Of a DNA stretch of 34,848 bases, positions 17,925-33,542 are shown piece by piece. Source of the DNA: a virus (lineage: Duplodnaviria > Heunggongvirae > Uroviricota > Caudoviricetes); IMG/VR virus record IMGVR_UViG_2651869781_000011, one strand, 5' to 3'. Numbering within the stretch: the first letter of the stretch is position 1; every line of letters begins with the position of its first letter. The translations under genes and the position numbers were made by a program. The notes beneath the pieces are model-generated. The model did not search any database and was not told the DNA's origin. It worked only from the letters and a program-made list of their open reading frames with translations.

Positions 17925-17999
<75 letters not shown>

Positions 18000-18002
18000 A
18001 TA

Positions 18003-18078
<76 letters not shown>

Positions 18079-21393: not shown

Positions 21394-22500
21394 TCAAACA
21401 ATCTGGAAAATATTTCTTGGATTTGTAATAGGTCTGTTGATGGAGAACAACTCACGAATTAAATCTTGGCTCAAGCCAGTTTTCATAAGAATTCTTAGCC
21501 AGGTTGCATCATCCAGCATTTCAATCGCCTCGGCCAGCATGCCGGGTTCTTCAGGGCGCAAAAGTTCATCACCAGGTTCAACTCTCGTATACCCTCTGGA
21601 ATTAAGATGCATATAGCCAGTTCTTGCCTGTTCCTGGGTCAATAAGCCTAATGCGCTGGCTCGATAAATACACATTTTAAGGCTGATTTTCCATCTAAGT
21701 TTAAATTCAACCAGAGCATTCCAGTCGAATTGCTTACCTCGTATTCGAGGAAATTCTTTAATGAAAGATAACCTGGGAACTAATAAGGCGCTCGAAAAGT
21801 GATCGGCTTGTGATTCCGTAAGTTTATCACCTGTCGTTATGCCCTCATGCATTACTAAATGCCCTAATTCATGACCTAAATCAGAGCGAAATCTACATAT
21901 GCTTTTTTTAACATTGTTCCTGATGATAACAGGCCTGTTATTGTGAACAGTAAAAGCATCAACACGATCATCGACTCCCGTAACATGCGCAACGATTACC
22001 CCTAAACTCTCCGCCAATTTAACCATTGATGATATAGGGCCAAGACCTAAATTCCAGGCACGGCGACAATCTTCTGCCACTCGCTCAATATCATTCGGAG
22101 TAAGTAATTCAGCCCCTGGGTGCTCCGGTATGTTAACGTCAGGAAATTCGATTTCACCTTCAACAGCAGAAATTATAATATTAAGAATCTCAGCCCTGGC
22201 CAATACACTATTAGTCAGCGTTTGAGTCCTGGACTTCTTACTCCGAAAATGGCAGACATCACTTTCCAGAGCGTATTTTCGTTCAGTAAAAAGAAAACTG
22301 GACTTAATCATAAGCGCTGAAGATATTAACTCAAGACATTGCTCCGATGGCCTGCACCCCTTCTCCAGTTTGCTAACGAATTGCTTTGTCTTGCCAATTT
22401 TTTCGGCTAACTCTTCACAAGAAAGCCCAACAGCCATTCTCGCTAGTTTGAGCTTATCACCCCGATACTCAGTGAAGTTATTCACCTGATGTTCCATCAC
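21394..22500 (-). CDS. XRE-family HTH fused to ImmA/IrrE-type zinc metallopeptidase (COG2856-like)
   Basis: 368 aa; N-terminal HTH (KLKLARMAVGLSCEELAEKIGKTKQFVSKLEKG); HEXXH motif HELGHLVMHE; AT-rich; start overlaps upstream gene by ~20 nt. Confidence 0.75.
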   Translation of the reverse strand: MMEHQVNNFTEYRGDKLKLARMAVGLSCEELAEKIGKTKQFVSKLEKGCRPSEQCLELISSALMIKSSFLFTERKYALESDVCHFRSKKSRTQTLTNSVLARAEILNIIISAVEGEIEFPDVNIPEHPGAELLTPNDIERVAEDCRRAWNLGLGPISSMVKLAESLGVIVAHVTGVDDRVDAFTVHNNRPVIIRNNVKKSICRFRSDLGHELGHLVMHEGITTGDKLTESQADHFSSALLVPRLSFIKEFPRIRGKQFDWNALVEFKLRWKISLKMCIYRASALGLLTQEQARTGYMHLNSRGYTRVEPGDELLRPEEPGMLAEAIEMLDDATWLRILMKTGLSQDLIRELFSINRPITNPRNIFQIV

Positions 22501-23128
22501 TGCTCACATCCAAATCTTTATCCTTCGTACGCCGACGAAGAGGCACCTTATTAATCTCCGCTTCGTCAGGGAGTGTGTTATAATCAAGAGGCATAAGCGG
22601 CATCGATGCTGTAGATTGATGAGAAACTATACTAATCTGAGCACCATAAGTATTAAATCCAACAAGAGCTACCTCCCAACGAGGCAGTGTGGACTCTAAT
22701 TCACCATCGCCCTCTTCGGATAAAAAAGGCTCAGCTATGACTCGCCATGTAATATCTTGCTCAGCCTCAACATCACCAAACAATGAGAGCTGCTCATACT
22801 CTACTTTATTTCGACGCAGACGATGTTTCTTTTTGGGGTTATTAATGCAATCTTTGGTAAATTGTAGCGGAACTTTATTTAAAGCAACTACATAGTCCAA
22901 CCCCTTGGAAATCATCTCAAGGCCAGGAATTGCATCTTCATTTTGAATAAGATGATTTCTGACCCAATCATAAGCCCTTACACCTTCAGACCAGTTGCTG
23001 TCTAATGCGTGCTTATGATAGTACAGCTGCTCAAGTACGTTAGCGATCTCCGCCAACAAGTGGCGAACATAGTTTTCAGCAAGATAAGGTTGAAATTCCC
23101 AACAAGGAGCTAACTGATTTTCATTCAT
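22478..23128 (-). CDS. Unknown protein (216 aa), first gene of the two-gene cassette
   Basis: ATG at 23128; acidic, probably disordered C-terminus; no motif I recognise; AT-rich. Confidence 0.6.
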   Translation of the reverse strand: MNENQLAPCWEFQPYLAENYVRHLLAEIANVLEQLYYHKHALDSNWSEGVRAYDWVRNHLIQNEDAIPGLEMISKGLDYVVALNKVPLQFTKDCINNPKKKHRLRRNKVEYEQLSLFGDVEAEQDITWRVIAEPFLSEEGDGELESTLPRWEVALVGFNTYGAQISIVSHQSTASMPLMPLDYNTLPDEAEINKVPLRRRTKDKDLDVSSDGTSGE

Positions 23129-23202
23129 TTCAAGTTTCGCTTTTTTTAGAATTCGTAAACCACATATTTTCGCATTTTTCTATTTTTGTCAACCAGACTA
23201 AT

Positions 23203-23225
23203 GCAAAAACCCGCCGAAGCGGGTT
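23203..23225 (-). terminator. Terminator hairpin downstream of hok
   Basis: CCCGC-cgaa-GCGGG stem followed on the minus strand by TTTTTGC. Confidence 0.5.
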
Positions 23226-23293
23226 AAGTGCGGGTGCGTTGAGGATGCCTGGCACATCAGAGGTGGCGGGAGATTACTCCCCCGCCGGGTCTC

Positions 23294-23449
23294 TTACTCC
23301 TCAGGTTCGTAAGCTGTGAAGACAGCGACCTCCGTCTGGCCGGTTCGGATTCGTACCTCGCAGAGGTCTTTCCTCGTTACCAGTGCCGTCACTATGACGG
23401 TTAAACAGATGACGATCAGGGCGATTAACATCGCCTTTTGCTGCTTCAT
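23294..23449 (-). CDS. hok: Hok/Gef-family type I toxin (HokD/RelF-like)
   Basis: 51 aa MKQQKAMLIALIVICLTVIVTALVTRKDLCEVRIRTGQTEVAVFTAYEPEE, checked codon by codon; below the 60-aa cutoff of the ORF track; AAGGAG SD. Confidence 0.85.
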   Translation of the reverse strand: MKQQKAMLIALIVICLTVIVTALVTRKDLCEVRIRTGQTEVAVFTAYEPEE

Positions 23450-23738
23450 AGCCTGCTTCTCCTTGACCTTTCGGTCCGTAAGAGGCTAATCTCTATGTGT
23501 CGCATAGATATGGCCTCAGATTAATGTTAAGCGTCTTGCAGGACGCGTAATGTTAACTGGGGCTTTTCTCTATCTGCCGTTGGTGTTCATGCCTGAGGCA
23601 GATAGCCTCAAGCACCCGCAGCAATTCTACTTAACTCTCCTTTTCCCGCAAATCGTTTTTATCCCCAGCGGCAAATCGAATACACCACCAGCGCCACCGC
23701 CATTGCAATTCCCATCGTTGCGAATGCTTCAGGCCAGG

Positions 23739-24404
23739 TCATTGACTCACCTCCAGCGGCGGTTCTGGTAGCGGCATCCAGTGAGTTACTTGCCCAAGGT
23801 CATTACCCGGACTAACTGCTATACCTCCGCGTCGGAACGTGTCTCCGATATAGCGTGCGGAATATATTAATGGCCCAGCCTCGCTGTCGATATTCACCGA
23901 AATAAGCACGTTCTGGCTCTTTTCAGGCATTCGCTCACTGCAGCTTATCCAACTATCCGGAGCTCCCGGAGAGTTGCCCGACAGCTCGTTCAACTTGTAA
24001 GTCTGGCTTACAGGCTCGTCACCATTAAGCATGGCGTTGCTCCGCTCTATACCATCCAGCGCGATTCGCAGTGCCTGAATTGTGGTAGTGCTATCGTTTG
24101 GGGCTATTCCATATCGCTCGAATACAGCGATATGACCGCGCATAATCTCAGGTGTAAGTTCTTTGTAAGCATAAGCAAGAGACGCTGATGCATTATCCGG
24201 CACAACCGACGCAGGCGCGGCAGCATAAACAGGAATAACGTCCGCTTGCTCTTTATTGCTTTCATCCGTTAAAGCCCAGAATAATTTCCCGGCTGGATGT
24301 TTGAAAATATAAGCAATTGGTTCTGCTTCCAGCGATGCCAGAGCAATTTTGAATAACTCACCCTCTACTCGTGCCCCCCCCTGAATTGGGGTGGCATTTC
24401 GCAA
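23739..24404 (-). CDS. Hypothetical phage protein; likely N-terminally split by a C8 homopolymer frameshift
   Basis: Track ORF starts at a TTG; an ATG at 24459 opens a 33-codon ORF that would fuse in frame if the 24374-24381 C-run were 7 rather than 8. Confidence 0.5.
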   Translation of the reverse strand: MRNATPIQGGARVEGELFKIALASLEAEPIAYIFKHPAGKLFWALTDESNKEQADVIPVYAAAPASVVPDNASASLAYAYKELTPEIMRGHIAVFERYGIAPNDSTTTIQALRIALDGIERSNAMLNGDEPVSQTYKLNELSGNSPGAPDSWISCSERMPEKSQNVLISVNIDSEAGPLIYSARYIGDTFRRGGIAVSPGNDLGQVTHWMPLPEPPLEVSQ

Positions 24405-24617
24405 TCGCTATTTTTAATTTAGCTTCTTCGATTAATTGCTCTTTTGTTAATTCAGTCATTTTTCATTACCGCCCTTTCGGGCGGCCTCCTGATGTTTTGA
24501 GGGGGCAGGAATCCCTCCTGTTAAGGATTAAATTTTATTTACAGTGCTGAGATTAATTATTCAGATTTGGATTATGTTTTCTCTTTCACTTCACGCAGTC
24601 CTGATTGTTAATTTGGC

Positions 24618-25034
24618 TCACAGTATCACCTCCTGCAAACTTCCCTTCCAGAAAGCCAGCACCCGTTGCATAGCTTCGCTCTGGCGGCACTCGCGACAAA
24701 TTATGTTCTGTCGTCTGTTGTAGCGACGTATTTCGCCATCTGGCAATGAATAAATCAGGTCAGGGTCGCTCTTCTTTTTCACTGCCGCTCTCGACATTTT
24801 TTTGCAGGCTTTTATCCAGTCCTTACGAGCCTGCTTCGAAGGAAATATTCCATGTCCTGAACCATATACTGCGCCACTAACTACCAGCTCTTTCGCCAGA
24901 ACTTCTATCAGGTGCCTCGTTGCTCCGGTTTCATCCTCCAGTTGCTTACGTGTTTTCCGCCCATCCCGCTGTACCAGCTCCACAATGCGCGCCTTCAGTT
25001 GCTTCCTGTATTCAGGTGTAAAAACGTTTCCCAT
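24618..25034 (-). CDS. Hypothetical phage protein (138 aa from ATG 25034)
   Basis: Track ORF 24618-25091; first ATG (MGNVFTPEYRKQ...) avoids overlap with the upstream gene; basic, Cys motif CRECRQ. Confidence 0.45.
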   Translation of the reverse strand: MGNVFTPEYRKQLKARIVELVQRDGRKTRKQLEDETGATRHLIEVLAKELVVSGAVYGSGHGIFPSKQARKDWIKACKKMSRAAVKKKSDPDLIYSLPDGEIRRYNRRQNIICRECRQSEAMQRVLAFWKGSLQEVIL

Positions 25035-25041
25035 AAACGCC

Positions 25042-25731
25042 TCACTTTTCCGATACAACGCGACTGGTGGAATCGACAATCTGTCGGACAATATCCCGGT
25101 GTTTATTCAGCTCCCGCAGTGCTGCGCAGACGCGCTCCCACTTCTGGACACGGTTTTTTGCCCGGCGCAGTTCGCGGTTTGCCAGATGCAGCGATGGTAA
25201 AGTCAGGTCATCGGCTCGCGTTTTGGTGAACGATGGCAACGACTGCACAATGTCCGCCACAGTTTCTGTTTTAATTTCTTCCTGTATTGCAGCTTTCGGC
25301 TCTGCTGGTAAATTATCGTCCGGCATGCAGTAACGAAATTTACCGTTCTGATTTACGCGAATCAGGCGACCTTTGCTGATTGCCTGAGCCAGCGTTGAAG
25401 CCACTTTGCGTGATGTGGTACCGAACAACGTAGCCAGTTCATCCGCCGTTTGTGGTCCGCGTTGTTCAATCGTCGCGGTTAAATCGCACTCTGAGATTTT
25501 CGCTACTGTTGCTGTGGTGGTTTCTTCCGGCAGTTCTGCCTGCGCTGGCTGTTCCTGCTGAACGTTGTTATCAGCCACACGCCAGGTGTACGCGCTTTTA
25601 TCAACAAAACCAGCATTTTTCAGTTCCCATAGTTCGTTAAGCACTTCTTCACGACTGATATCAAGTCGCGCCGCAAGTTCTATGGATGTGGCTTTTCCCA
25701 TTGCTTTCAGTGCGTCAAAAACAGTCTCCAT
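25042..25731 (-). CDS. Hypothetical protein with probable N-terminal winged-helix domain
   Basis: Track ORF 25042-25782; likely start [30 protein letters not shown]...; downstream of the DnaC-like gene. Confidence 0.45.
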
Positions 25732-25753
25732 TAAATTTTTCTCCCGGTAAAAA

Positions 25754-26500
25754 TCACTTCGTGATTCCTGGCTGGACGACATTCGGGCGCCAGCTTTCCC
25801 AGTTAAAATTCACCCAGCGTCCGCCGTTCATGGTCATGCGATCCATAATCCGCTCACCGAGCAATGTTTTCATGGCCTCATAGTTCAGGTTTGTCAGCAT
25901 TCCCACGCTACGCATCGACGCTGTCCGTCGATCAATAATCTGGTGCAGTACCACCTGCTCGTTTTTCGTCTCACGCTGAATGCCAATTTCATCAAGAACC
26001 AGCAGATCCACTTCGCACAGTTCCTGCAAAAATTTTTCGCCTGACTGCCCGTCGTCATAGCTGGCGTGCAGGGCACTCATAACATCAGCCACAGTAACCA
26101 CTATCACTGTCTGGCCGTCTTTCAGCAGGCGATTTCCGATAGCCGCCGCCAGATGGTTTTTCCCGGTACCAGGTTTTCCACTGAACGCGAAATTTGTACA
26201 CCCGGTCATCAGTTCATCGGCGATGGATTTTGCCTGGCTTAACGCGTATCGCTGACCGTCGTTCTGCACCTGGTAATTCGCAAACGAACATTTGCGGTGC
26301 AACGGCTGGATGCCTGAGCGATTCAGAATTTTTTCCACCCGCAACTGACGATTCAGGCGGTTGATCTCCTCGCTACGTTTCTGGCCTTCGGCAAGCTGCC
26401 ACTCGCGCCACTCCGCCACCGTTCTGTATGGAGCGGTTACATGTGGCGGGGTCAGTCTGCGGAGGCGTTCCAGAACACCACCTGTCGCAATATTTTTCAC
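25754..26500 (-). CDS. DnaC-like replicative helicase loader (IstB-like AAA+)
   Basis: 248 aa; Walker [14 protein letters not shown], Walker B LLVLDEIG; follows the O-like gene. Confidence 0.85.
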
Positions 26501-26506
26501 AGTTCG

Positions 26507-27472
26507 TTACCCCCTGAACCCCGGCGGAATTTCGGTGTCCGGTTCAGAAATGTGATTCACACAACGCTGTACAGGCGAACGCCCCAGACGGATAACCAGC
26601 TCATCCCATTTTTCGCGAAGCTTTGACGGGCTCATGACGTTTTTTACCCAGAATGGATCCCGCTGTACCCGACCAAACATTTCGCAAATTTGCCTGTGAG
26701 TTCTGCCATCCAGCATCCGCATTGTGCGCACGTCATTGGCCCACACGGTCCAGTTTGGTTCTTTCGGTCGCATGATCTCGCCATCATCGCTGGCAGCCTG
26801 CTCGTAAAGACTCACGATTCGTCCCCAGATCCACTGCGCACAAGCTAAATCTTCCTGGCTACCCCACTGGCGTTTTTTCGCACTGAACACAACCGCGTCA
26901 GGGTGTCGGGTTAAAAAATCCTGTTCAGCCGTCTGCATGTCCGGTTGCGAAGCTTCCGGACGAGAAGTGTTTTTATTCTCTGTAGTAATCTCTGTTGTAT
27001 TCTCTGTAAGATCATCGGGCCATTTTGACCCGATGACATTGGGTCGTTTTGAACCAATGGAGCGTGCCATTTTGACCTCTTCCATCGTGTCATTTTGACC
27101 TGATGGAGCGGCGCATTTTGACCTGATGGATTCGCTCACTTTGCCACCATCTAAAAGCTCACTCTCGTAATTAATCGTGTAAAAATTAGTCATGTCACGC
27201 TTTGATTTGTTGAGCTTTTCGCAACGCAAAAGCCCCAGCGTTTTCAGACTTGCAAATGCGCGTTTTAACGTTGACTCTGACCAGAACGGGAACTGTTCCA
27301 GCCATTGTTCTGTTGTGTTATAAATCCAGCGAACCCCGTTACATTCCATGCCGGAATTAGTATCTCTCAACCAGTAATGCAGCTGCTGCAGTACAATGGC
27401 TTCATTCAGGCCAATTTTCATCGCCAGCTGCGTGTTAATAACCAGTGGGCGTTCAGCAAAAAGAAGACTCAT
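26507..27472 (-). CDS. Replication initiator (lambda O-like), ori iterons inside the gene
   Basis: Track ORF to 27526 begins at TTG; ATGs at 27514 and 27472; N-terminal DNA-binding-like region, acidic repeat linker, C-terminal domain; contains the iteron array. Confidence 0.75.
   Translation of the reverse strand: MSLLFAERPLVINTQLAMKIGLNEAIVLQQLHYWLRDTNSGMECNGVRWIYNTTEQWLEQFPFWSESTLKRAFASLKTLGLLRCEKLNKSKRDMTNFYTINYESELLDGGKVSESIRSKCAAPSGQNDTMEEVKMARSIGSKRPNVIGSKWPDDLTENTTEITTENKNTSRPEASQPDMQTAEQDFLTRHPDAVVFSAKKRQWGSQEDLACAQWIWGRIVSLYEQAASDDGEIMRPKEPNWTVWANDVRTMRMLDGRTHRQICEMFGRVQRDPFWVKNVMSPSKLREKWDELVIRLGRSPVQRCVNHISEPDTEIPPGFRG
27021..27147. repeat. Origin iterons: CATTTTGACC-type repeats at ~23-bp spacing
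   Basis: Four exact CATTTTGACC copies (27021, 27068, 27091, 27114) plus two degenerate ones; three 12-bp TCTCTGT-containing repeats just upstream (26974-27009); AT-richer stretch follows. Confidence 0.7.
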
Positions 27473-27974
27473 AATTCCATCCGGCTTTTTGTTGATATTG
27501 CTGACGATACGCATGCTTGAAAGCAATAGCTTTTTCTATAAGCTCGTCAGTCTCACGCTCCACAACAGCGGGATCTGCCAAAAGCAGACCGGACTCCACC
27601 ACATCGCCATATTCTTTGTTTAACCCGGCGATCATGTACGTAATGCTTTTTCCGTCAGTAATTTCACAATACAACCTGAAATCGCTGATCCGGATAGCCT
27701 CCATAATTGCCGGAATCAGCGCCGTGAATTTTTCCCGCTTATCCCTGGTGTCGATAGCTTTCCAGCGTTCGAATATCTTCACCCGGTTAACGCCCAACGC
27801 CCGTTGATCAACCTCGCCATCATTAAACGTGACGCGTTGAACATCGATGTTCGGGCGTTCTTTCAGAGCCCAGAATGCTTCCGTGATTAATATCGTCGCC
27901 TGCTCCTGTGTCATTCCTGGTCGGCATACCCAGGCATCCAGAGCCTCACAAACCTGTTCAGGGGTGATTTTCAT
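27453..27974 (-). CDS. Hypothetical protein at the cII position (possibly YdaT-like)
   Basis: 173 aa between the Cro-like gene and the O-like gene; family assignment uncertain. Confidence 0.35.
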   Translation of the reverse strand: MKITPEQVCEALDAWVCRPGMTQEQATILITEAFWALKERPNIDVQRVTFNDGEVDQRALGVNRVKIFERWKAIDTRDKREKFTALIPAIMEAIRISDFRLYCEITDGKSITYMIAGLNKEYGDVVESGLLLADPAVVERETDELIEKAIAFKHAYRQQYQQKAGWNYESSFC

Positions 27975-28185
27975 TGTTCAACCGCCCCGCCCGCTTTGCC
28001 TTACGATATTCGTCATAAACTTTGGGGTCGTACTGAAGTTCCCCGCCGGATGCCTCTTGCAGGCGCATCGCGCGACCTTCAGGAACCAGTTCCCCCCATT
28101 GAGAAACAGCAGATGGATCAACACCAGCAGCTTTCGCTACTTTGGCTTTCGTCCCATAAAAATTAATTACGTCTGATTTAAACAT
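27958..28185 (-). CDS. dicC: Cro-like regulator (DicC/YdaS family)
   Basis: 75 aa from ATG 28185 with GGAGGGG SD; divergent from the repressor gene; HTH-like N-terminus. Confidence 0.7.
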   Translation of the reverse strand: MFKSDVINFYGTKAKVAKAAGVDPSAVSQWGELVPEGRAMRLQEASGGELQYDPKVYDEYRKAKRAGRLNNENHP

Positions 28186-28262
28186 CACCCCTCCAAAGTT
28201 GAGTTTTCTCAATAGTAATCACTCAAGGAATCTCAAGTCAAGGGTTATTAAGATATCTAAAT
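28186..28262. promoter_or_regulatory. Divergent promoter/operator region between dicC-like and dicA-like genes
   Basis: TTGAGTTTTCTCA at 28199-28211, CTCAAG direct repeats at 28222-28237; candidate minus-strand promoter TTGACT-N18-TACTAT; no SD before the dicA ATG. Confidence 0.5.
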
Positions 28263-28670
28263 ATGAACGAGAAAACTTTAGGTCAACGAATTAGAGAAAG
28301 ACGCAAACAGGTTGGTTTAAGTCAAAACGATTTAAGCAAAGCCGCTGGCGTATCTGGCTCATCAATTTCACTATGGGAAAGCGACCATACAGCCCCGCGC
28401 GGGCAAAATTTGCATCGCCTGGCTGAGGTATTGCAATGTTCACCAACTTGGATACTGTTTGGTGACGAGGATAAAACACCAGATCCACCAGTTGCACTCA
28501 ACAGCGCCTTAGACTTATCGGAAGATGAGTTGGAGATGTTGCGATTGTATCGCGCACTTCCAAAATCAGAGCAGCAAGCACAAATCAGCGAACTCCGTGC
28601 CCGCGTTGAGAATTTTAATCGCCTATTCACCGAGCTACTAGAAGCTCGCAAACGTAACAAACATCAGTAA
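28263..28670 (+). CDS. dicA: XRE-family repressor (DicA-like, CI analogue)
   Basis: 135 aa; HTH LSQNDLSKAAGVSGSSISLWE; ...VLQCSPTWILFGDEDK... matches DicA as recalled. Confidence 0.8.
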   Translation: MNEKTLGQRIRERRKQVGLSQNDLSKAAGVSGSSISLWESDHTAPRGQNLHRLAEVLQCSPTWILFGDEDKTPDPPVALNSALDLSEDELEMLRLYRALPKSEQQAQISELRARVENFNRLFTELLEARKRNKHQ

Positions 28671-28731
28671 CCCCCTTCACAAATTTTAAAGCCTTACATT
28701 TCAATGTATTGGCTTTATTTTGCATTAATTA

Positions 28732-28783
28732 TTGAGTTTTCTCATTAAAAACACTTGACCAATATTCATGAGAAAACTAAATT
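28732..28783 (+). promoter_or_regulatory. Candidate repressor-controlled promoter for the ydfA-dicF-dicB operon
   Basis: TTGACC-N17-TAAATT (28755-28783) flanked by TTGAGTTTTCTCA (28732-28744, identical to the 28199 site) and an inverted near-copy at 28769-28780. Confidence 0.45.
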
Positions 28784-28860
28784 ACCACCCATCAAGACAC
28801 CGCACGGTGTTCTCAGCAAACAGTTCCGCTACCCCGGCGTTAAGGGGAAATGAGGTCAAC

Positions 28861-29016
28861 ATGGATACTATCGATCTTGGCAACAACGAATCTCTGGTGT
28901 ACGGCGTGTTTCCCAACCAGGACGGCACATTCACCGCGATGACGTATACCAAAAGAAAAACGTTTAAAACCGAAAATGGTGCCCGTCGCTGGCTGGAAAG
29001 AAACTCAGGTGAGTGA
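28861..29016 (+). CDS. ydfA: YdfA-like small protein (51 aa)
   Basis: ATG 28861 with GAGG SD; same size and position as Qin ydfA (recall). Confidence 0.55.
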   Translation: MDTIDLGNNESLVYGVFPNQDGTFTAMTYTKRKTFKTENGARRWLERNSGE

Positions 29017-29017
29017 T

Positions 29018-29146
29018 ATGGATTTCGACACAATCATGGAAAAGGCTTACGAAGAATACTTCGAAGGCCTTGCCGAAGGCGAAGAAGCTCTCAGCTTCAG
29101 TGAGTTTAAACAGGCGCTTTCCAGCTCGGCAAAATCTAACGGCTGA
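29018..29146 (+). CDS. ydfB: YdfB-like small acidic protein (42 aa)
   Basis: MDFDTIMEKAYEEYFEGLAEGEEALSFSEFKQALSSSAKSNG; starts 1 nt after the previous stop; below the ORF-track cutoff. Confidence 0.5.
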   Translation: MDFDTIMEKAYEEYFEGLAEGEEALSFSEFKQALSSSAKSNG

Positions 29147-29175
29147 TAAGCGAAGCAGCACCGCGAGGAATCAGT

Positions 29176-29394
29176 ATGCAGAAACGAGAACCCGTCATCA
29201 TCGCGCCAGACTATACCGATGATGAACTTTATGAGTGGATGCACCAGAAAATTAATGCAGCGCAGGATCTGAAATGGGCCAATGAAGCCAGGGCTAAGCA
29301 GGCTGAAAATCTGTCCGCTCTGGAGCAGGATATCACCAATCTGGAAAAAGCAGCGGCATTAAGCATTGCCAGAATGATTACATACCCGCGTTAA
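29176..29394 (+). CDS. ydfC: YdfC-like protein (72 aa)
   Basis: 72 aa; same size and position as Qin ydfC (recall). Confidence 0.5.
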   Translation: MQKREPVIIAPDYTDDELYEWMHQKINAAQDLKWANEARAKQAENLSALEQDITNLEKAAALSIARMITYPR

Positions 29395-29416
29395 TAGCTA
29401 ACCAACGAGGCTAATA

Positions 29417-29824
29417 ATGGAATTTAAAGATTTACCAAAAGAAATCCAGACAATTGCTGCAACGACTCTCGGTGATAGTCTGGTGAAAATTGACCCGGCA
29501 TACACCAAAAAAGAAACCATCGATAATATGGTTCGTAATGTGCGCAATGCTTTTTCTGGGCTATATGGTTCTGATAATCAAAAGCAGGAAAGCGATGTTA
29601 ATAAACGGGTAATTTCTGTTTGCGTGAATGGCCATGTTCTTTCATCAATCAAAACAGAAACGGCGACAGTCTTCGATTGCCTTTGCATTGTACAGAGCCT
29701 TGTTGATGCCCTGTTTCGTTCAGTGAATTTAGAAAATGATGCAAATCTGCGAGGGCGCACAATAGCACATCCATATGCACATACTTTAGGCTCTGTGGAT
29801 ATCAAAGATCCCACAAATCTTTAA
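29417..29824 (+). CDS. Hypothetical protein (135 aa), AT-rich
   Basis: ATG 29417 with GAGG SD at 6-nt spacing; no recognisable motif. Confidence 0.5.
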   Translation: MEFKDLPKEIQTIAATTLGDSLVKIDPAYTKKETIDNMVRNVRNAFSGLYGSDNQKQESDVNKRVISVCVNGHVLSSIKTETATVFDCLCIVQSLVDALFRSVNLENDANLRGRTIAHPYAHTLGSVDIKDPTNL

Positions 29825-30035
29825 TGAAATAGTTAACGCGAATTGTACTTGCTCTTTCAGTTGCTTTCAGAATACGCGTTGAAACTGCTGGCGGTAATTT
29901 GGTATTCCATTTATTAAAATCATGCCCGGGAAAGTACTCTTCGAAAATACTTTTAACTGCAGACTCGCCTATTGAAATGCTGCTTACCATGCGATTTTGA
30001 TAAAGGCATTTAGCAATAAGAGTTGATTTTAACAT
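29802..30035 (-). CDS. Hypothetical protein (77 aa), convergent with the 135-aa ORF
   Basis: ATG 30035 with strong AGGAGG SD; 3' end overlaps the 135-aa ORF by 23 bp; AT-rich. Confidence 0.5.
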   Translation of the reverse strand: MLKSTLIAKCLYQNRMVSSISIGESAVKSIFEEYFPGHDFNKWNTKLPPAVSTRILKATERASTIRVNYFIKDLWDL

Positions 30036-30368
30036 TCACCCTCCTGAGGGTTGGTAATTAAGGAGTTCTCCACGGGTGAAATGGAGTGCGTGCGCCGGAC
30101 ACGGGTGAACATCCGGCACTGACAGTTTACTGAAAGGATATTTCTCTGAAAAGTCAGAGCATAACGCGAAAGCGCACGGCGAGGTTGCTGGTTCATAGAT
30201 AGCCTGTCGTTAAATTTTCGTCGACCGTGCGCTTCCGGTTGTGGCACTCCGCGAAATGGCGCGGCGGTAAGTATGGCGGGGTTATTCCTTCCCCCGTTGA
30301 GGACACCGGGTTGTCAGGTTGACCATACGCTTAAGTGACAACCCCGCTGCAACGCCCTCTGTTATCAA

Positions 30369-30425
30369 TTTTCTGTGACGTTTGGCGGCATCTGTTTGCC
30401 CATGAACTGATGTCCGCCCTTTTTA
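30369..30425 (+). ncRNA. dicF: DicF-like small RNA with intrinsic terminator
   Basis: TTTTCTGTGACGTTTGGCGG...CCGCCCTTTTT resembles Qin DicF as recalled; GGCGGCATC/GATGTCCGCC stem then T5; immediately upstream of dicB. Confidence 0.65.
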
Positions 30426-30593
30426 AAGTGAATTTTGTGATGCGGTGAATGCGGCTAAGCGCACGCGGAACAGTTAAAGCTAAAAACAGTGTTATGGGTG
30501 GATTCTCTGTATCCGGCGTTAATTGTTAACTGGTTAACGTCACCTGGAGGCACCAGGCACCGCATCACAAAACTCATTGTTGAGGACGCGATA

Positions 30594-30782
30594 ATGAAAA
30601 CGTTATTACCAAACGTTAATACGTCTGAAGGTTGTTTTGAAATTGGTGTCACTATCAGCAATCAGATATTTACTGAAGATGCCATTAATAAAAGAAAACA
30701 CGAACAGGAACTGCTAAATAAAATATGCATTGTTTCGATGCTGGCCCGTTTACGTCTGATGCAAACAGGATGCAGGCAATGA
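30594..30782 (+). CDS. dicB: Cell division inhibitor DicB
   Basis: 62 aa MKTLLPNVNTSEGCFEIGVTISN...ICIVSMLARLRLMQTGCRQ; GAGGA SD; matches DicB as recalled. Confidence 0.85.
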   Translation: MKTLLPNVNTSEGCFEIGVTISNQIFTEDAINKRKHEQELLNKICIVSMLARLRLMQTGCRQ

Positions 30783-30969
30783 ATACGGCATTTGTACTCG
30801 TTCTGACTGTTTTTTTGTTTCTGGTGAACCGATTGATCTTGTTATTGACATACATGACTCAATGGAAGAATGCATGACTGCCGCGGCAGAGCAAAAAATT
30901 CCCGGGAACTGTTATCCTGTCGACAAAATTATTCGCATGAACAATAACGAAATCCCGGCAGGCCTTTAA
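30779..30969 (+). pseudogene. ydfD: ydfD-like gene interrupted by a frameshift at a T7 tract
   Basis: ATG overlaps the dicB stop; frame stops after 32 codons; one extra T in the 30810-30816 run would give a continuous 63-codon ORF. Confidence 0.5.
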
Positions 30970-31061
30970 AACAGCCCCATAATAAATATCCGGTTTTATT
31001 TTTATATGTCAGCAATGGCAGGGATTTGTCCACCCTTAAATCTGTAATGAGGTAAAACAAA

Positions 31062-33542
31062 ATGAGTAAAGTCTTTATTTGCGCCGCCATTCCGGACGAA
31101 CAGGCAACAGCAGAAGGCGCCAAACCTGTGGCCACTGCCATTGAAGCAGGCGACGAACGCCGGGCAAGAGCCAAATTTAGCTGGTTATTTCTGGAACAAT
31201 ACCCGGAAGCTCAGGACTGTGCTTATAAATTTCTTGTCTGCGAGGATAAACCCGGCATGGCCCGCCCTGCTCTCGATTCCTGGGATTCCGAATATATGCA
31301 GGAAAACCGCTGGAATGAGGAGTCGGCTTCCTTTGTTCCGGTCGACCCTGAACCGGACGCAGAAATTGTTAACTTTAATCAGTTATCTGACGACAAGCGG
31401 GCTGCTGTCCTTGTCAGGTTCGGTACACATGAAAACATCACCGTGGATATGGTCATCAATGCAAGCGGGCTTCTCGGCGATGACGAGATGACGACTTTTG
31501 ATGGACACCTCGCTGAAGCAATTATCCGGACCAGAGAAATTAACGCCATGTATCCAGAGCGTCAGATTGAGTACATCAACGATGCCAGACGTGATTTAAA
31601 ACCAACAGCCAAATGGCCCGACGTTCAGGCGTATTTTCTCGAACGTAAAAAACGCATGGAAAAGGAGCGCAAAGAAGGTGGCGCATATAATTCCGTCGTC
31701 GATCTTGCCCGCGCCAGAGTCAACCGGCAAGGCACTGAAAACTCTGCAGGAAAAACTGACTCCGTAACTGCTGTCATTCGTCGCGAATACAGGCAGACAT
31801 GGAAAACACTGGATGAAGAACTGGCCTACGCTTTCTGGCCTGGTGATATTGATGCCGGAAACATTGACGGCAGCATCCATCGCTGGGCAAAAAATGAAGT
31901 TATCGACAAAGATCGCGAAGACTGGAAGCGTATTTCCGCATCAATGCGCAAACAACCTGATGCCGTTCGCTACGACCGTCAGACTATTTTTGGCCTTGTC
32001 CGTGAGCGTCCGATCGACATTCACAAAGATCCCGTGGCGCTGAACAAATACATCACTGAATACCTGGCGACAAAGGGCGTGTTTGAGGATGAAGAAACAG
32101 ACCAGAGCACTGCTGATATTCTCCAGCCGTCAGCAGCACAAACTGATGCAGTGGAAACTGAAGTATCTGATACCCAAAAAAATGAAAGCGCGCTGGAAAC
32201 TGAACCATCTGTAGAGCGTGAGGGGCCGTTCTACTTCCTCTTCACCGATAAGGATGGCGAAAAATATGGTCGTGCAAACAAACTTTCTGGTCTGAATAAG
32301 GCGCTGGCTGCCGGGGCTACTGAAATCACGAAAGAAGAATATTTTGCCCGTAAAAACGGCACGTACTCAGGTTCACAACAAAATACTGGTGCATCTGACA
32401 CGACCGCACAACCAGAGCCGGTAAAAGTTACCGCTGACGAAGTAAACAAAATTATGCAGGCAGCCAATATCAGCCAGCCTGACGCCGATAAGTTGCTTGC
32501 TGCCTCTCGCGGAGAATTTGTTGCAGGGATTAGCGACCCGAATGATCCGAAATGGGTGAAGGGGATTGAAACCCGCGATTCTGTAAACCAGAACCAGCAA
32601 GAATCGGAACAGAACGACCAGAAAGCGGAACAAAACAGCCAAAATGCGTTACAAAACGAGCCAGAAACGAAACAACCTGAGGCAGTAGCGCAACAGGAAC
32701 CGGAAAAAGTCTGCACCGCCTGCGGTCAGAGCGGTGGCGGCAACTGCCCTGATTGTGGCGCGGTGATGGGCGACGCAACATACCAGGAAACATTCGATGA
32801 AGAGAATCAGGTTGAAGTTCAGGAAAATGATCCGGAGGAAATGGAAGGCGCTGAACATCCACACAAGGAGAATGCTGGCAGCGCTCAGGACCACGCCAGC
32901 GATAATGAAACTGGTGAGACGGCAGATCCCTTAATTGTGGTGAACGGTCATCACGTTATCACATCCACCAGCAGAGTGTGGTACCACCTGATGATCGACC
33001 TTGAAACAATGGGAACCAACACCAATGCGCCCATCGTGGTTATTGGTGCGGTTTTCTTCGACCCACAAACAGGGGAAATCGGGCCAGTATTTTATATCGT
33101 TATCAGTCTGACTGACGCAATGAATACAGGGGCTGCTCCTGACGGTGGAACCATCAAATGGTGGCTGAAGCAGTCCAGTGAAGCCAGAGCTGCCATTTTA
33201 ACAGACCAGGTAAAACTGAAGGATGCCCTTTCGCGGTTTCGGGAGTTCATCAACGAATACTCAGATGAAAAATTCGTTCAGGTATGGGGTAATGGTGCAA
33301 CTTTCGATAACGCAATTTTGCGCACCTCATACGAACGTCTGGACATCCCCTGCCCGTGGCGCTACCACAACGATCGCGATGTACGCACAATCGTTGAGCT
33401 GGGAAAAACAATCGACTTTGATGCTAGAACCGTTATTCCATTCGAAGGCGTTCGCCACAATGCACTGGATGACGCCCGTCACCAGGCAAAATACGTTTCA
33501 GCAATCTGGCAAAAACTGATCCCGAATCCGGTTGATTTTTAA
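31062..33542 (+). CDS. RecE-like large protein with C-terminal DEDDh 3'-5' exonuclease domain
   Basis: 826 aa; GAGG SD; C-terminal motifs MIDLETMG, WGNGATFDNAIL, HNALDDARH; central ...KLLAASRGEFVAGISDPNDPKWVKG... recalls RecE; Cys cluster CTACGQSGGGNCPDCG. Confidence 0.8.
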   Translation: MSKVFICAAIPDEQATAEGAKPVATAIEAGDERRARAKFSWLFLEQYPEAQDCAYKFLVCEDKPGMARPALDSWDSEYMQENRWNEESASFVPVDPEPDAEIVNFNQLSDDKRAAVLVRFGTHENITVDMVINASGLLGDDEMTTFDGHLAEAIIRTREINAMYPERQIEYINDARRDLKPTAKWPDVQAYFLERKKRMEKERKEGGAYNSVVDLARARVNRQGTENSAGKTDSVTAVIRREYRQTWKTLDEELAYAFWPGDIDAGNIDGSIHRWAKNEVIDKDREDWKRISASMRKQPDAVRYDRQTIFGLVRERPIDIHKDPVALNKYITEYLATKGVFEDEETDQSTADILQPSAAQTDAVETEVSDTQKNESALETEPSVEREGPFYFLFTDKDGEKYGRANKLSGLNKALAAGATEITKEEYFARKNGTYSGSQQNTGASDTTAQPEPVKVTADEVNKIMQAANISQPDADKLLAASRGEFVAGISDPNDPKWVKGIETRDSVNQNQQESEQNDQKAEQNSQNALQNEPETKQPEAVAQQEPEKVCTACGQSGGGNCPDCGAVMGDATYQETFDEENQVEVQENDPEEMEGAEHPHKENAGSAQDHASDNETGETADPLIVVNGHHVITSTSRVWYHLMIDLETMGTNTNAPIVVIGAVFFDPQTGEIGPVFYIVISLTDAMNTGAAPDGGTIKWWLKQSSEARAAILTDQVKLKDALSRFREFINEYSDEKFVQVWGNGATFDNAILRTSYERLDIPCPWRYHNDRDVRTIVELGKTIDFDARTVIPFEGVRHNALDDARHQAKYVSAIWQKLIPNPVDF

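Follow-up and report, generated by a model that had tools for sequence, protein, structure and literature searches.

DicF is a textbook prophage small RNA that blocks cell division through ftsZ. What should be made of a prophage locus that keeps the seed and the surroundings of DicF and has exchanged the part that is complementary to ftsZ? And what is the long untranslated RNA from which such an element would be released? We address these questions in one stretch of 34,848 nucleotides of caudoviral DNA (IMG/VR record IMGVR_UViG_2651869781_000011), which we call the window. Judged by its sequence, the segment at positions 30036-30425 is the long untranslated part of an early-left operon of the dicBF type in an E. 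coli lambdoid prophage, and the system itself is the well-known dicBF locus. A preliminary description of this DNA had read a DicF-like sRNA behind a structured, non-coding leader. It did not contain two of the findings reported here: that the allele is of the known O157:H7 type and that the leader holds a separately conserved RNA domain supported by covariation. Our preferred model, which we consider likely, is a dicBF operon with a processed leader and a hairpin-swapped DicF that acts through its seed, with no extended antisense to ftsZ.

Where does the segment sit? From 29800 to 30800 the window aligns at 97-99.7% identity to many chromosomal prophage loci of E. coli that have an annotated dicB. 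In the best match, NZ_CP047378, a DicA-like HTH repressor, DUF1391/ydfA, ydfB and ydfC are annotated in sequence. Next come a pair of hypothetical ORFs on opposite strands and a gap without annotation, and after the gap dicB, DUF1482/ydfD (frameshifted) and an exonuclease. The order in K-12 Qin is identical minus both hypothetical ORFs, and the gap is annotated there as dicF. RefSeq features of the 99.7%-identical locus (L001) were transferred to the window by an offset of 26799. Identity and synteny, like the folds, the covariation and the predicted pairings given below, are direct results. The gene order in the window is ydfA-ydfB-ydfC, two extra ORFs, leader, dicF and dicB, and the genes and the promoter-like site are as follows.

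28263-28670: dicA-like repressor gene
28755-28783, + strand: promoter-like site TTGACC-17-TAAATT from a consensus scan, candidate dicBp equivalent, positioned as K-12 dicBp (dicA-ydfA gap)
28861-29016, + strand: DUF1391/ydfA-like ORF (RefSeq mapping, ORF list)
29018-29146, + strand: ydfB (RefSeq mapping, ORF list)
29176-29394, + strand: ydfC (RefSeq mapping, ORF list)
29417-29824, + strand: extra ORF of 135 aa, missing from K-12 Qin
29802-30035, - strand: extra ORF of 77 aa, missing from K-12 Qin, convergent with operon transcription
30594-30782, + strand: dicB, cell-division inhibitor (Pfam DicB PF05358, E 5.9e-39; RefSeq annotation)

The dicF of the window lies between ydfC and dicB in the long UTR of a lambdoid prophage immunity-region operon, which is the location characteristic of DicF. 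Once the DicA-like repressor is relieved, transcription would start at a promoter upstream of ydfA, for which the site at 28755-28783 is the putative dicBp equivalent, and would run through ydfABC and the two extra ORFs into the leader. The extra-ORF segment (29417-30035) has 39% GC, and a Pfam search with the 135-aa and 77-aa ORFs found no family. Both ORFs are also carried by O157:H7. The 77-aa ORF has a strong AGGAGG ribosome-binding site on the - strand at 30040-30045, which overlaps the first bases of the leader as it was earlier called. The extra 640 nt and the convergent 77-aa ORF in the ydfC-leader gap could alter transcription into the leader relative to K-12.

Three observations concern other parts of the prophage. 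ydfD/DUF1482, 3' of dicB (30779-30969), is present as two ORFs, 30725-30877 and 30862-30969, split near a T-run, and RefSeq records a frameshift in its equivalent in the closest relative. At 23447-23617 on the - strand there is a full-length match (102.9 bits) to the Rfam sok antitoxin RNA, and the prophage therefore holds a hok/sok-type toxin-antitoxin locus. Two adjacent phage-borne tRNA genes, tRNA-Thr (UGU) and tRNA-Gly (UCC), lie at 17925-18078 on the - strand.

Is the element in front of dicB a DicF?

30370-30424, + strand: DicF allele, with seed 30370-30383, terminator hairpin 30384-30418 (O157/Rac/Stx type) and U-run 30420-30424

The preliminary description had reported a DicF-like 5' sequence and a terminator hairpin with a T-run, and both the fold and the Rfam alignment confirm them at 30370-30424. 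The 5' sequence, UUUCUGUGACGUUU, occupies 30370-30383. The allele folds into an unpaired 5' stretch, a bulged hairpin and a U-run, the form of a rho-independent terminator, and the hairpin at 30384-30418 reaches -17.3 kcal/mol (z = -3.8), a value that 0 of 200 shuffles equalled. A simple terminator scan misses this hairpin because of its bulges. Alignment to Rfam DicF (RF00039), the check that the preliminary description had proposed, runs end to end over 30370-30419 (model positions 1-52) with 41.1 bits and an E-value of 2.2e-7 in a 901-nt search, below the gathering score of 48 bits; K-12 DicF scores 76.7 bits. Since the window allele falls below gathering, it goes unreported in a default Rfam scan and is unannotated in RefSeq. 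Indeed, a scan of the whole window at the gathering threshold reported no DicF, and a permissive scan was required. The Rfam alignment, the ydfC-leader-dicF-dicB synteny and the 96% identity of the flanks to K-12 Qin together back the assignment as DicF-like.

How does the allele differ from that of K-12? The first 19 nt are those of K-12 except for one deleted G in the seed, where O157 keeps GG. The single-stranded 5' region used for xylR-type targets, UUUCUGGUGACGUUU, is present with this one G deleted. The hairpin base GGCGG/CCGCC and the U-tail are common to both alleles, and the base, the U-run and the next 169 nt are 96-100% identical. Between the arms of the base, the hairpin interior (30389-30414) shares 13 of 26 bases with K-12, which bears out the earlier remark that the central part is unlike K-12 DicF, and the flanks of this swapped interior retain 96% identity. 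The substitutions are mutually compensating (GGCGGUAUCAG...CUGCUCUGCCGCC to GGCGGCAUCUG...CUGAUGUCCGCC), and the terminators have similar stabilities, -17.3 kcal/mol in the window and -15.9 kcal/mol in K-12. We surveyed 5,426 complete E. coli genomes for these alleles. The exact 71-nt sequence of the window allele occurs in 2 records; 288 further records are 95-99% identical and have the same hairpin with the seed GG intact, O157:H7 included; K-12-type dicF is found in about 3,700 records. The one-base seed deletion is private to the window allele, and the hairpin swap and the sub-threshold score go beyond routine annotation. Rac-SA53 and Stx phage 75/02 also have the stem GGCGGCAUC.G / CUGAUGUCCGCC, in the terminators that precede kil. 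Because of this shared stem, the window allele looks like a recombinant, in which a DicF seed has been joined to a Rac/Stx-type terminator.

An alternative is that the element is a decaying remnant that serves as an intrinsic terminator only and has no trans-acting role, because its seed has lost a base and its ftsZ-complementary part is gone. The rarity of the exact sequence with the G deletion, the frameshift in the neighbouring ydfD and the sub-threshold Rfam score are all consistent with decay. However, the compensating changes of the hairpin swap maintain a stable stem, about 290 genomes, O157:H7 among them, retain this hairpin together with an intact seed, the seed of the window allele still pairs over 9 bp with xylR (see below), and the flanks, at 96% identity, are undecayed. 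We therefore regard a remnant as improbable and favor the reading of a seed-acting sRNA.

What would such an sRNA regulate? Published genetics established that K-12 DicF uses its 3' region to pair with the ftsZ ribosome-binding site and its 5' end to pair with xylR, and that regulation of xylR requires a 10-codon segment (PMC5069750). We compared the alleles by thermodynamic co-folding, so the ftsZ and xylR figures that follow are predictions rather than measurements. RNAduplex, which was run without intramolecular structure, gave unrealistically long duplexes and was replaced by co-folding. For ftsZ, K-12 DicF has a predicted ddG of -16.3 kcal/mol with 37 intermolecular bp across -28..+25, and O157-type DicF has -7.6 kcal/mol without extended pairing. 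The window allele reaches -5.5 kcal/mol, which is equalled by 95 of 100 shuffled sRNAs, in a control that is not stringent in that 7 of 100 shuffles match or beat even K-12 DicF. In these co-fold predictions the 3' region of the window allele lacks complementarity to the ftsZ ribosome-binding site, the function from which the DicF family takes its name. For xylR, the DicFs of K-12 and O157 both pair over 11 bp at +10..+20 (-15.8 kcal/mol), a predicted site that falls within the published 10-codon segment. The window allele keeps 9 of these 11 pairs (+10..+18; -11.7 kcal/mol).

These results bear out the earlier suggestion that the target range of this allele could differ. The extended anti-ftsZ pairing of K-12 is predicted to be lost in the window allele, and the xylR seed pairing is predicted to be kept but weakened. 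With a seed kept except for one G and a hairpin of the O157/Rac/Stx type, the allele should therefore regulate xylR-like targets by way of its 5' seed and not act as an extended antisense to the ftsZ ribosome-binding site. Inhibition of cell division by the operon of the window would then fall to DicB.

How would the sRNA be released? The RNA between the antisense ORF and DicF comprises the following parts.

30047-30162, + strand: 5' part of the leader, type-specific, containing the hairpins 30094-30117 and 30119-30157; common to K-12 Qin, replaced in 'type II' leaders
30170-30234, + strand: long stem-loop AAGCGCACGGCGA / UCGACCGUGCGCUU whose inner hairpin varies, a predicted substrate of RNase III
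30238-30353, + strand: conserved four-way-junction ('cloverleaf-like') RNA domain of about 116 nt (covariance model R1, 168.6 bits)
30354-30369, + strand: single-stranded linker ending AUCAAU/UUUC, identical to K-12, the break being the RNase E site by K-12 homology

The preliminary description had the leader begin at 30040. That a leader precedes DicF is upheld, with a later start: the conserved leader begins at about 30047, because 30036-30046 belong to the ribosome-binding-site region of the antisense ORF. Similarly, the hairpin GCCGGA...TCCGGC, which had been placed at 30092-30115, is present at 30094-30117. The hairpins reported for the leader are real, and the GC-richness reported with them is only mild (54% compared with 50% for the window, rising to 60% in the 3' third). 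From 30047 to 30369 the leader matches the K-12 ydfC-dicF UTR at 309 of 322 positions (96%). The segment 30047-30162 is specific to Qin-type loci, and other dicF loci have unrelated sequence in its place. The arms of the long stem (30170-30182/30221-30234) are kept in both leader types, and this stem folds at -28.7 kcal/mol (z = -2.2).

In K-12, DicF is cut out of a polycistronic transcript and has no internal promoter (PMC10448788, PMC5069750). A 190-nt precursor owes its 5' end to an RNase III cut at +813/814 of the transcript (PMC10448788), and that of the 53-nt DicF is due to RNase E (PMC10448788, PMC5069750). Both species accumulate in stationary phase (PMC10448788, PMC5069750), and the 190-nt RNA accumulates upon RNase E inactivation (PMC10448788). 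Counted back 190 nt from the K-12 DicF 3' end, the precursor would start at L002:2746 of the K-12 locus, which aligns to 30232 of the window, in the 3' arm of the conserved long stem. This predicted start coincides with the beginning of the conserved domain. The stem and linker sequences that bear the K-12 cleavage sites are conserved in the window; the experiments themselves were done in K-12. That the leader is a processing substrate, as the preliminary description had proposed, is thus published for the near-identical K-12 RNA (PMC10448788, PMC5069750), and the stem is conserved here.

From these K-12 experiments we infer the cleavage sites, Hfq dependence and regulation at the locus of the window. 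RNase III would cut the long stem at 30170-30234 and yield an RNA of about 190 nt, made up of the four-way-junction domain (30238-30353), the linker and DicF. RNase E would then cut the AU-rich linker at about 30369/30370, to make the DicF 5' end and release an Hfq-type sRNA of about 50-55 nt. The 3' end of DicF would come from intrinsic termination at 30420-30424, and polymerases that read through would proceed to dicB.

What is the domain that makes up most of the precursor? Its helices are these.

30238-30245/30346-30353: P0
30249-30253/30260-30264: H1
30277-30281/30292-30296: H2
30308-30316/30336-30344: H3
30271-30276 with 30323-30328: pseudoknot, GUAUGG with CCAUAC of the H3 loop

We gathered copies of the domain by its loop motif in IMG/VR and by a two-part pattern in one genome per species, built covariance model R1 from them and aligned 78 copies. 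Because the collecting scans required the loop motif (CAGGUUGACCAU.CGC or GACCAU.CGC), part of the invariance seen in the H3 loop stems from the collection itself. Across the 78 copies, 95.4% of cells hold standard pairs, compared with 34-54% when partners are slid by 1-3 columns, and 11 pairs are changed on both sides, a number reached by 0 of 500 shuffles. The alignment was not fitted to P0 and the pseudoknot, because neither was part of model R1. Compensatory changes are found in each of several elements. In H3, GGGUUGUCA/UGACAACCC becomes GGGUAACCA/UGGUUACCC in Izhakiella, GAGUUGCCA/UGGCAACUC in P1-type copies and GGAUUGUCA/UGGCAAUCC in Citrobacter. H2 changes from CGGGG/CCCCG to CAGGG/CCCUG, CUGGG/CCCAG or CCCGGG/CCCGGG, the pseudoknot from GUAUGG/CCAUAC to GCAUGG/CCAUGC in P1, and P0 from C-G to U-A in cdtI-type copies. 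The minimum-free-energy fold of the single sequence 30232-30424 recovers P0, H1, H2, H3 and the terminator, with an unexceptional energy (z = -1.0). Comparative sequence evidence from Escherichia, Citrobacter, Trabulsiella, Erwinia, Izhakiella and phage P1 thus describes 30238-30353 as a covarying four-way junction with a pseudoknot, common to a family of seed-plus-terminator cassettes. At 30291-30295, in the 3' arm of H2, the copies are split about in half between CCCC and CCCCC, a difference that affects only the size of the H2 loop.

Does the domain belong to a catalogued family? An Rfam search of 29800-30700 with E-values up to 10 found no family that matches 30238-30353 and no tRNA match. 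A tRNA or tRNA-like element was considered and rejected, as ARAGORN finds tRNAs only at 17925-18078; the domain resembles tRNA only in having a four-helix junction and a tertiary pairing between loop and junction. Model R1 found no second copy of the domain within the window, for example on the PR side. In the accessible literature we found neither a secondary-structure model nor a comparative analysis of the K-12 ydfC-dicF UTR.

The aligned copies also bear on whether the leader encodes a protein on the opposite strand, either a 72-aa ORF at 30029-30247 or, in K-12-type copies, a frame that is open for up to 109 codons. Most copies do have a long antisense frame free of stops. However, the variable sites of this frame are distributed over the codon positions as 35/35/29, with no third-position excess, so the leader carries no coding signal by this measure. 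Moreover, about half of the copies are put out of frame by the common 1-nt indel in H2 (CCCC vs CCCCC), other loci have unrelated sequence in place of the 5' half of the leader, and no gene is annotated at the leader in K-12 or the RefSeq relatives. The codon-position counts and the frame-breaking indel rule out a protein-coding reading for practical purposes; we consider an antisense protein highly improbable. The earlier statement that the leader has no convincing ORF holds, and we continue with the leader as a structured, processed RNA.

How widely is the domain distributed, and what follows it? Copies occur in Escherichia, Shigella, Citrobacter, Trabulsiella, Erwinia, Izhakiella and phage P1. 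In a BLAST search against phages, 30238-30361 occurs alone in phage cdtI, Stx2c phages and phage P1. A GC-rich hairpin with a T-run lies 21-75 nt 3' of the domain in 73 of the 78 copies by a strict rule and in 77 by eye. These copies have 26 distinct hairpins, most of which begin UUUGGCGG, and several unrelated spacers. The commonest cassette is the DicF seed with the K-12 hairpin; others combine the DicF seed with a short hairpin or have different spacers (cdtI type, P1 type and CCAUGUUGAUUACC type). In P1, the domain lies directly after the C1-controlled Pban promoters, in the 'dicF-like region' of the record, ahead of tRNAs, tciABC and ban. It begins about 20 nt past the predicted Pban start, and the T-run ends about 180 nt from this start. 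Because the domain lies so close to a C1-controlled promoter, P1 would make its domain RNA of about 180 nt as a primary transcript. This length matches the 190-nt product of K-12, and RNase III in Qin-type operons thus appears to recreate a unit that others transcribe directly. In the cdtI prophage the domain directly follows cI, and in the cdtI, Citrobacter and Erwinia prophages examined no other element separates it from the cI-like repressor gene, and xis/int or recombination genes come after it. The arrangement of the Izhakiella locus is less clear-cut.

Several individual copies deserve mention. One IMG/VR copy (L016; 1628-1760) is missing about 75 nt between two CGCGAAA repeats, so that the 5' leader is fused directly to H1. 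A Shigella flexneri copy (L135; 1450-1581) keeps the domain and the DicF seed with a decayed terminator hairpin that lacks a clean U-run. In Erwinia, Izhakiella and Trabulsiella (L147:4659-4760, L148:2500-2610, L145), a terminator hairpin of 65-70 nt encloses GGAG followed by AUG, which could be the sequestered ribosome-binding site of a small ORF. The record PP818812, 'Actinobacillus phage vB_Apl-pPE4' (L154; 2479-2940), is assigned to an Actinobacillus host and has an enterobacterial-type dicA-domain-kil region in which the spacer-plus-terminator cassette is tandemly duplicated. The scan pattern was also found in metagenome-assembled genomes labelled Bacillota, Veillonella, Clostridia and Collinsella (L137, L139, L142 and L144). 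L137, L139 and L144 also match the domain model; L139 and L144 are identical to Escherichia copies and L137 to a P1-type copy, and all three most likely reflect binning contamination; L142, a match to the pattern only, is probably a chance hit.

Why should a structured domain stand so regularly before a terminator? One alternative is that it is mainly a cis transcription element, a put-type antiterminator or a riboswitch-type attenuator, that decides whether polymerases stop at the terminator at 30384-30424 or read on to dicB, the exonuclease, xis and int, and that the released sRNA is secondary. The near-constant hairpin and T-run after the domain and its place at the head of the P1, cdtI, Citrobacter and Erwinia transcription units are what such an element would show. 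Moreover, no N-like gene is annotated in the operon, yet the genes past the terminator must be expressed, and both a terminated (1146-nt) and a read-through (1608-nt) transcript have been reported in K-12 (PMC10448788). Other results speak against this alternative. The promoter of Qin-type operons is 0.8-1.4 kb away from the domain, and in Rac-SA53 and Stx 75/02 phages the terminator and the leader that follows it are retained although the domain is missing. No covarying alternative pairing joins the domain to the terminator, and the one K-12-type candidate is weak and not conserved across cassette types: pairing of the linker with the 5' arm of the terminator gives an alternative antiterminator hairpin in K-12-type copies and fails for the window allele and the other cassettes, so we rejected it. 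No result suggests a ligand or a factor. Model R1 has no match at E-values up to 10 in 22000-32000 of HK022, which carries putL and putR. Homology to the HK022 put RNAs was rejected on this result together with the lack of an Rfam put family and an inverted-repeat search of HK022 that did not return putL/putR; the domain may be analogous to put. Overall, we consider it unlikely that the domain is mainly a cis-acting switch.

Under the preferred model of a processed leader, the conservative reading of the domain is that it is a stable 5' scaffold of the precursor that may position RNase E, which fits the accumulation of the 190-nt RNA in K-12. A bolder proposal is that 30238-30353 represents an uncatalogued RNA family, a chassis for exchangeable seed-plus-terminator cassettes with an activity of its own. 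We put this forward tentatively, as a possibility that we would not yet bet on. If it were true, DicF would be one of a dozen or more cassettes in at least six Enterobacterales genera and P1-like phages, and the window allele would be one case of cassette swapping that retargets a phage sRNA. Candidate activities of the domain would include guiding RNase E, holding a factor and setting read-through of the adjacent terminator in early-left operons that lack N.

The RNA between dicF and dicB is conserved as well.

30425-30593, + strand: conserved structured dicB leader, 163 of 169 bases as in K-12

Part of it (30431-30571) aligns with model positions 21-154 of 206 of Rfam STnc100 (RF02076) at 38.7 bits, below the gathering score of 47, and its K-12 equivalent scores 34.1 bits. 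A 72-nt form of DicF has been described (PMC5069750), and a long-range stem, 30439-30446/30561-30568, lies where the RNase III cut for this form would fall. The sequence is nearly invariant upstream of kil, an FtsZ inhibitor gene, in Rac-SA53, Stx phage 75/02 and pPE4. The segment 30425-30593 therefore looks like a shared leader of prophage cell-division-inhibitor genes.

Why does this locus matter? In about 5% of complete E. coli genomes, including O157:H7, the ftsZ-complementary part of DicF has been exchanged while the seed and both flanks are almost unchanged, and therefore 'DicF' copies of pathogens may not be functionally equivalent. Genome annotation misses the hairpin-swapped allele because its score lies under the Rfam threshold. 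The domain in turn raises the questions of why the precursor of about 190 nt is stable and what role a covarying four-way junction has at the head of early phage operons, before a terminator. Parts of the findings on the allele and the domain may already be in print.

How does the locus compare with known systems? The closest is DicF of K-12 Qin (RF00039), which has the same operon position, the same 5' 19 nt (minus the G), the GGCGG/CCGCC base, the U-tail and 96% identical flanks. It differs in the hairpin interior (13/26), in its Rfam score (76.7 vs 41.1 bits) and in the predicted ftsZ pairing, which is lost in the window. The prophage dicF of O157:H7 has the hairpin variant, the leader and the two extra ORFs of the window, and its seed keeps GG; EHEC is reported to carry four dicF copies (Melson and Kendall 2019, as cited in PMC7873438 and PMC9438474). 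The K-12 ydfC-dicF UTR with its 190-nt precursor (Faubladier 1990; Ragunathan 2023, PMC10448788) is 96% identical to the leader, with the RNase III stem and the RNase E linker conserved, and its 3' 116 nt can now be seen as a covarying four-way junction with a pseudoknot.

Farther away, the 'dicF-like region' of the P1 ban operon (NC_005856) carries the domain, too (94.4 bits), and a terminator after it, and its H2, H3 and pseudoknot differ by compensatory changes; its spacer and hairpin, by contrast, are unrelated to DicF and lack the UUUCUGGUGACG seed. The put RNAs of HK022 are likewise structured, protein-independent, located near the start of early operons and placed ahead of terminators (PMC9378689), a parallel under which antitermination by the domain would be hypothetical. 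Unlike the domain, they consist of two stem-loops with a triplex in about 70 nt, and model R1 does not detect them. Finally, the locus resembles the RNase E-processed Hfq sRNAs. In a review of these RNAs we found no large, covarying and separately mobile 5' domain of this kind in other members (PMC9438474). What they share with the locus of the window is a short seed-plus-terminator RNA cut from a longer precursor, and DicF is the founding example (PMC9438474).
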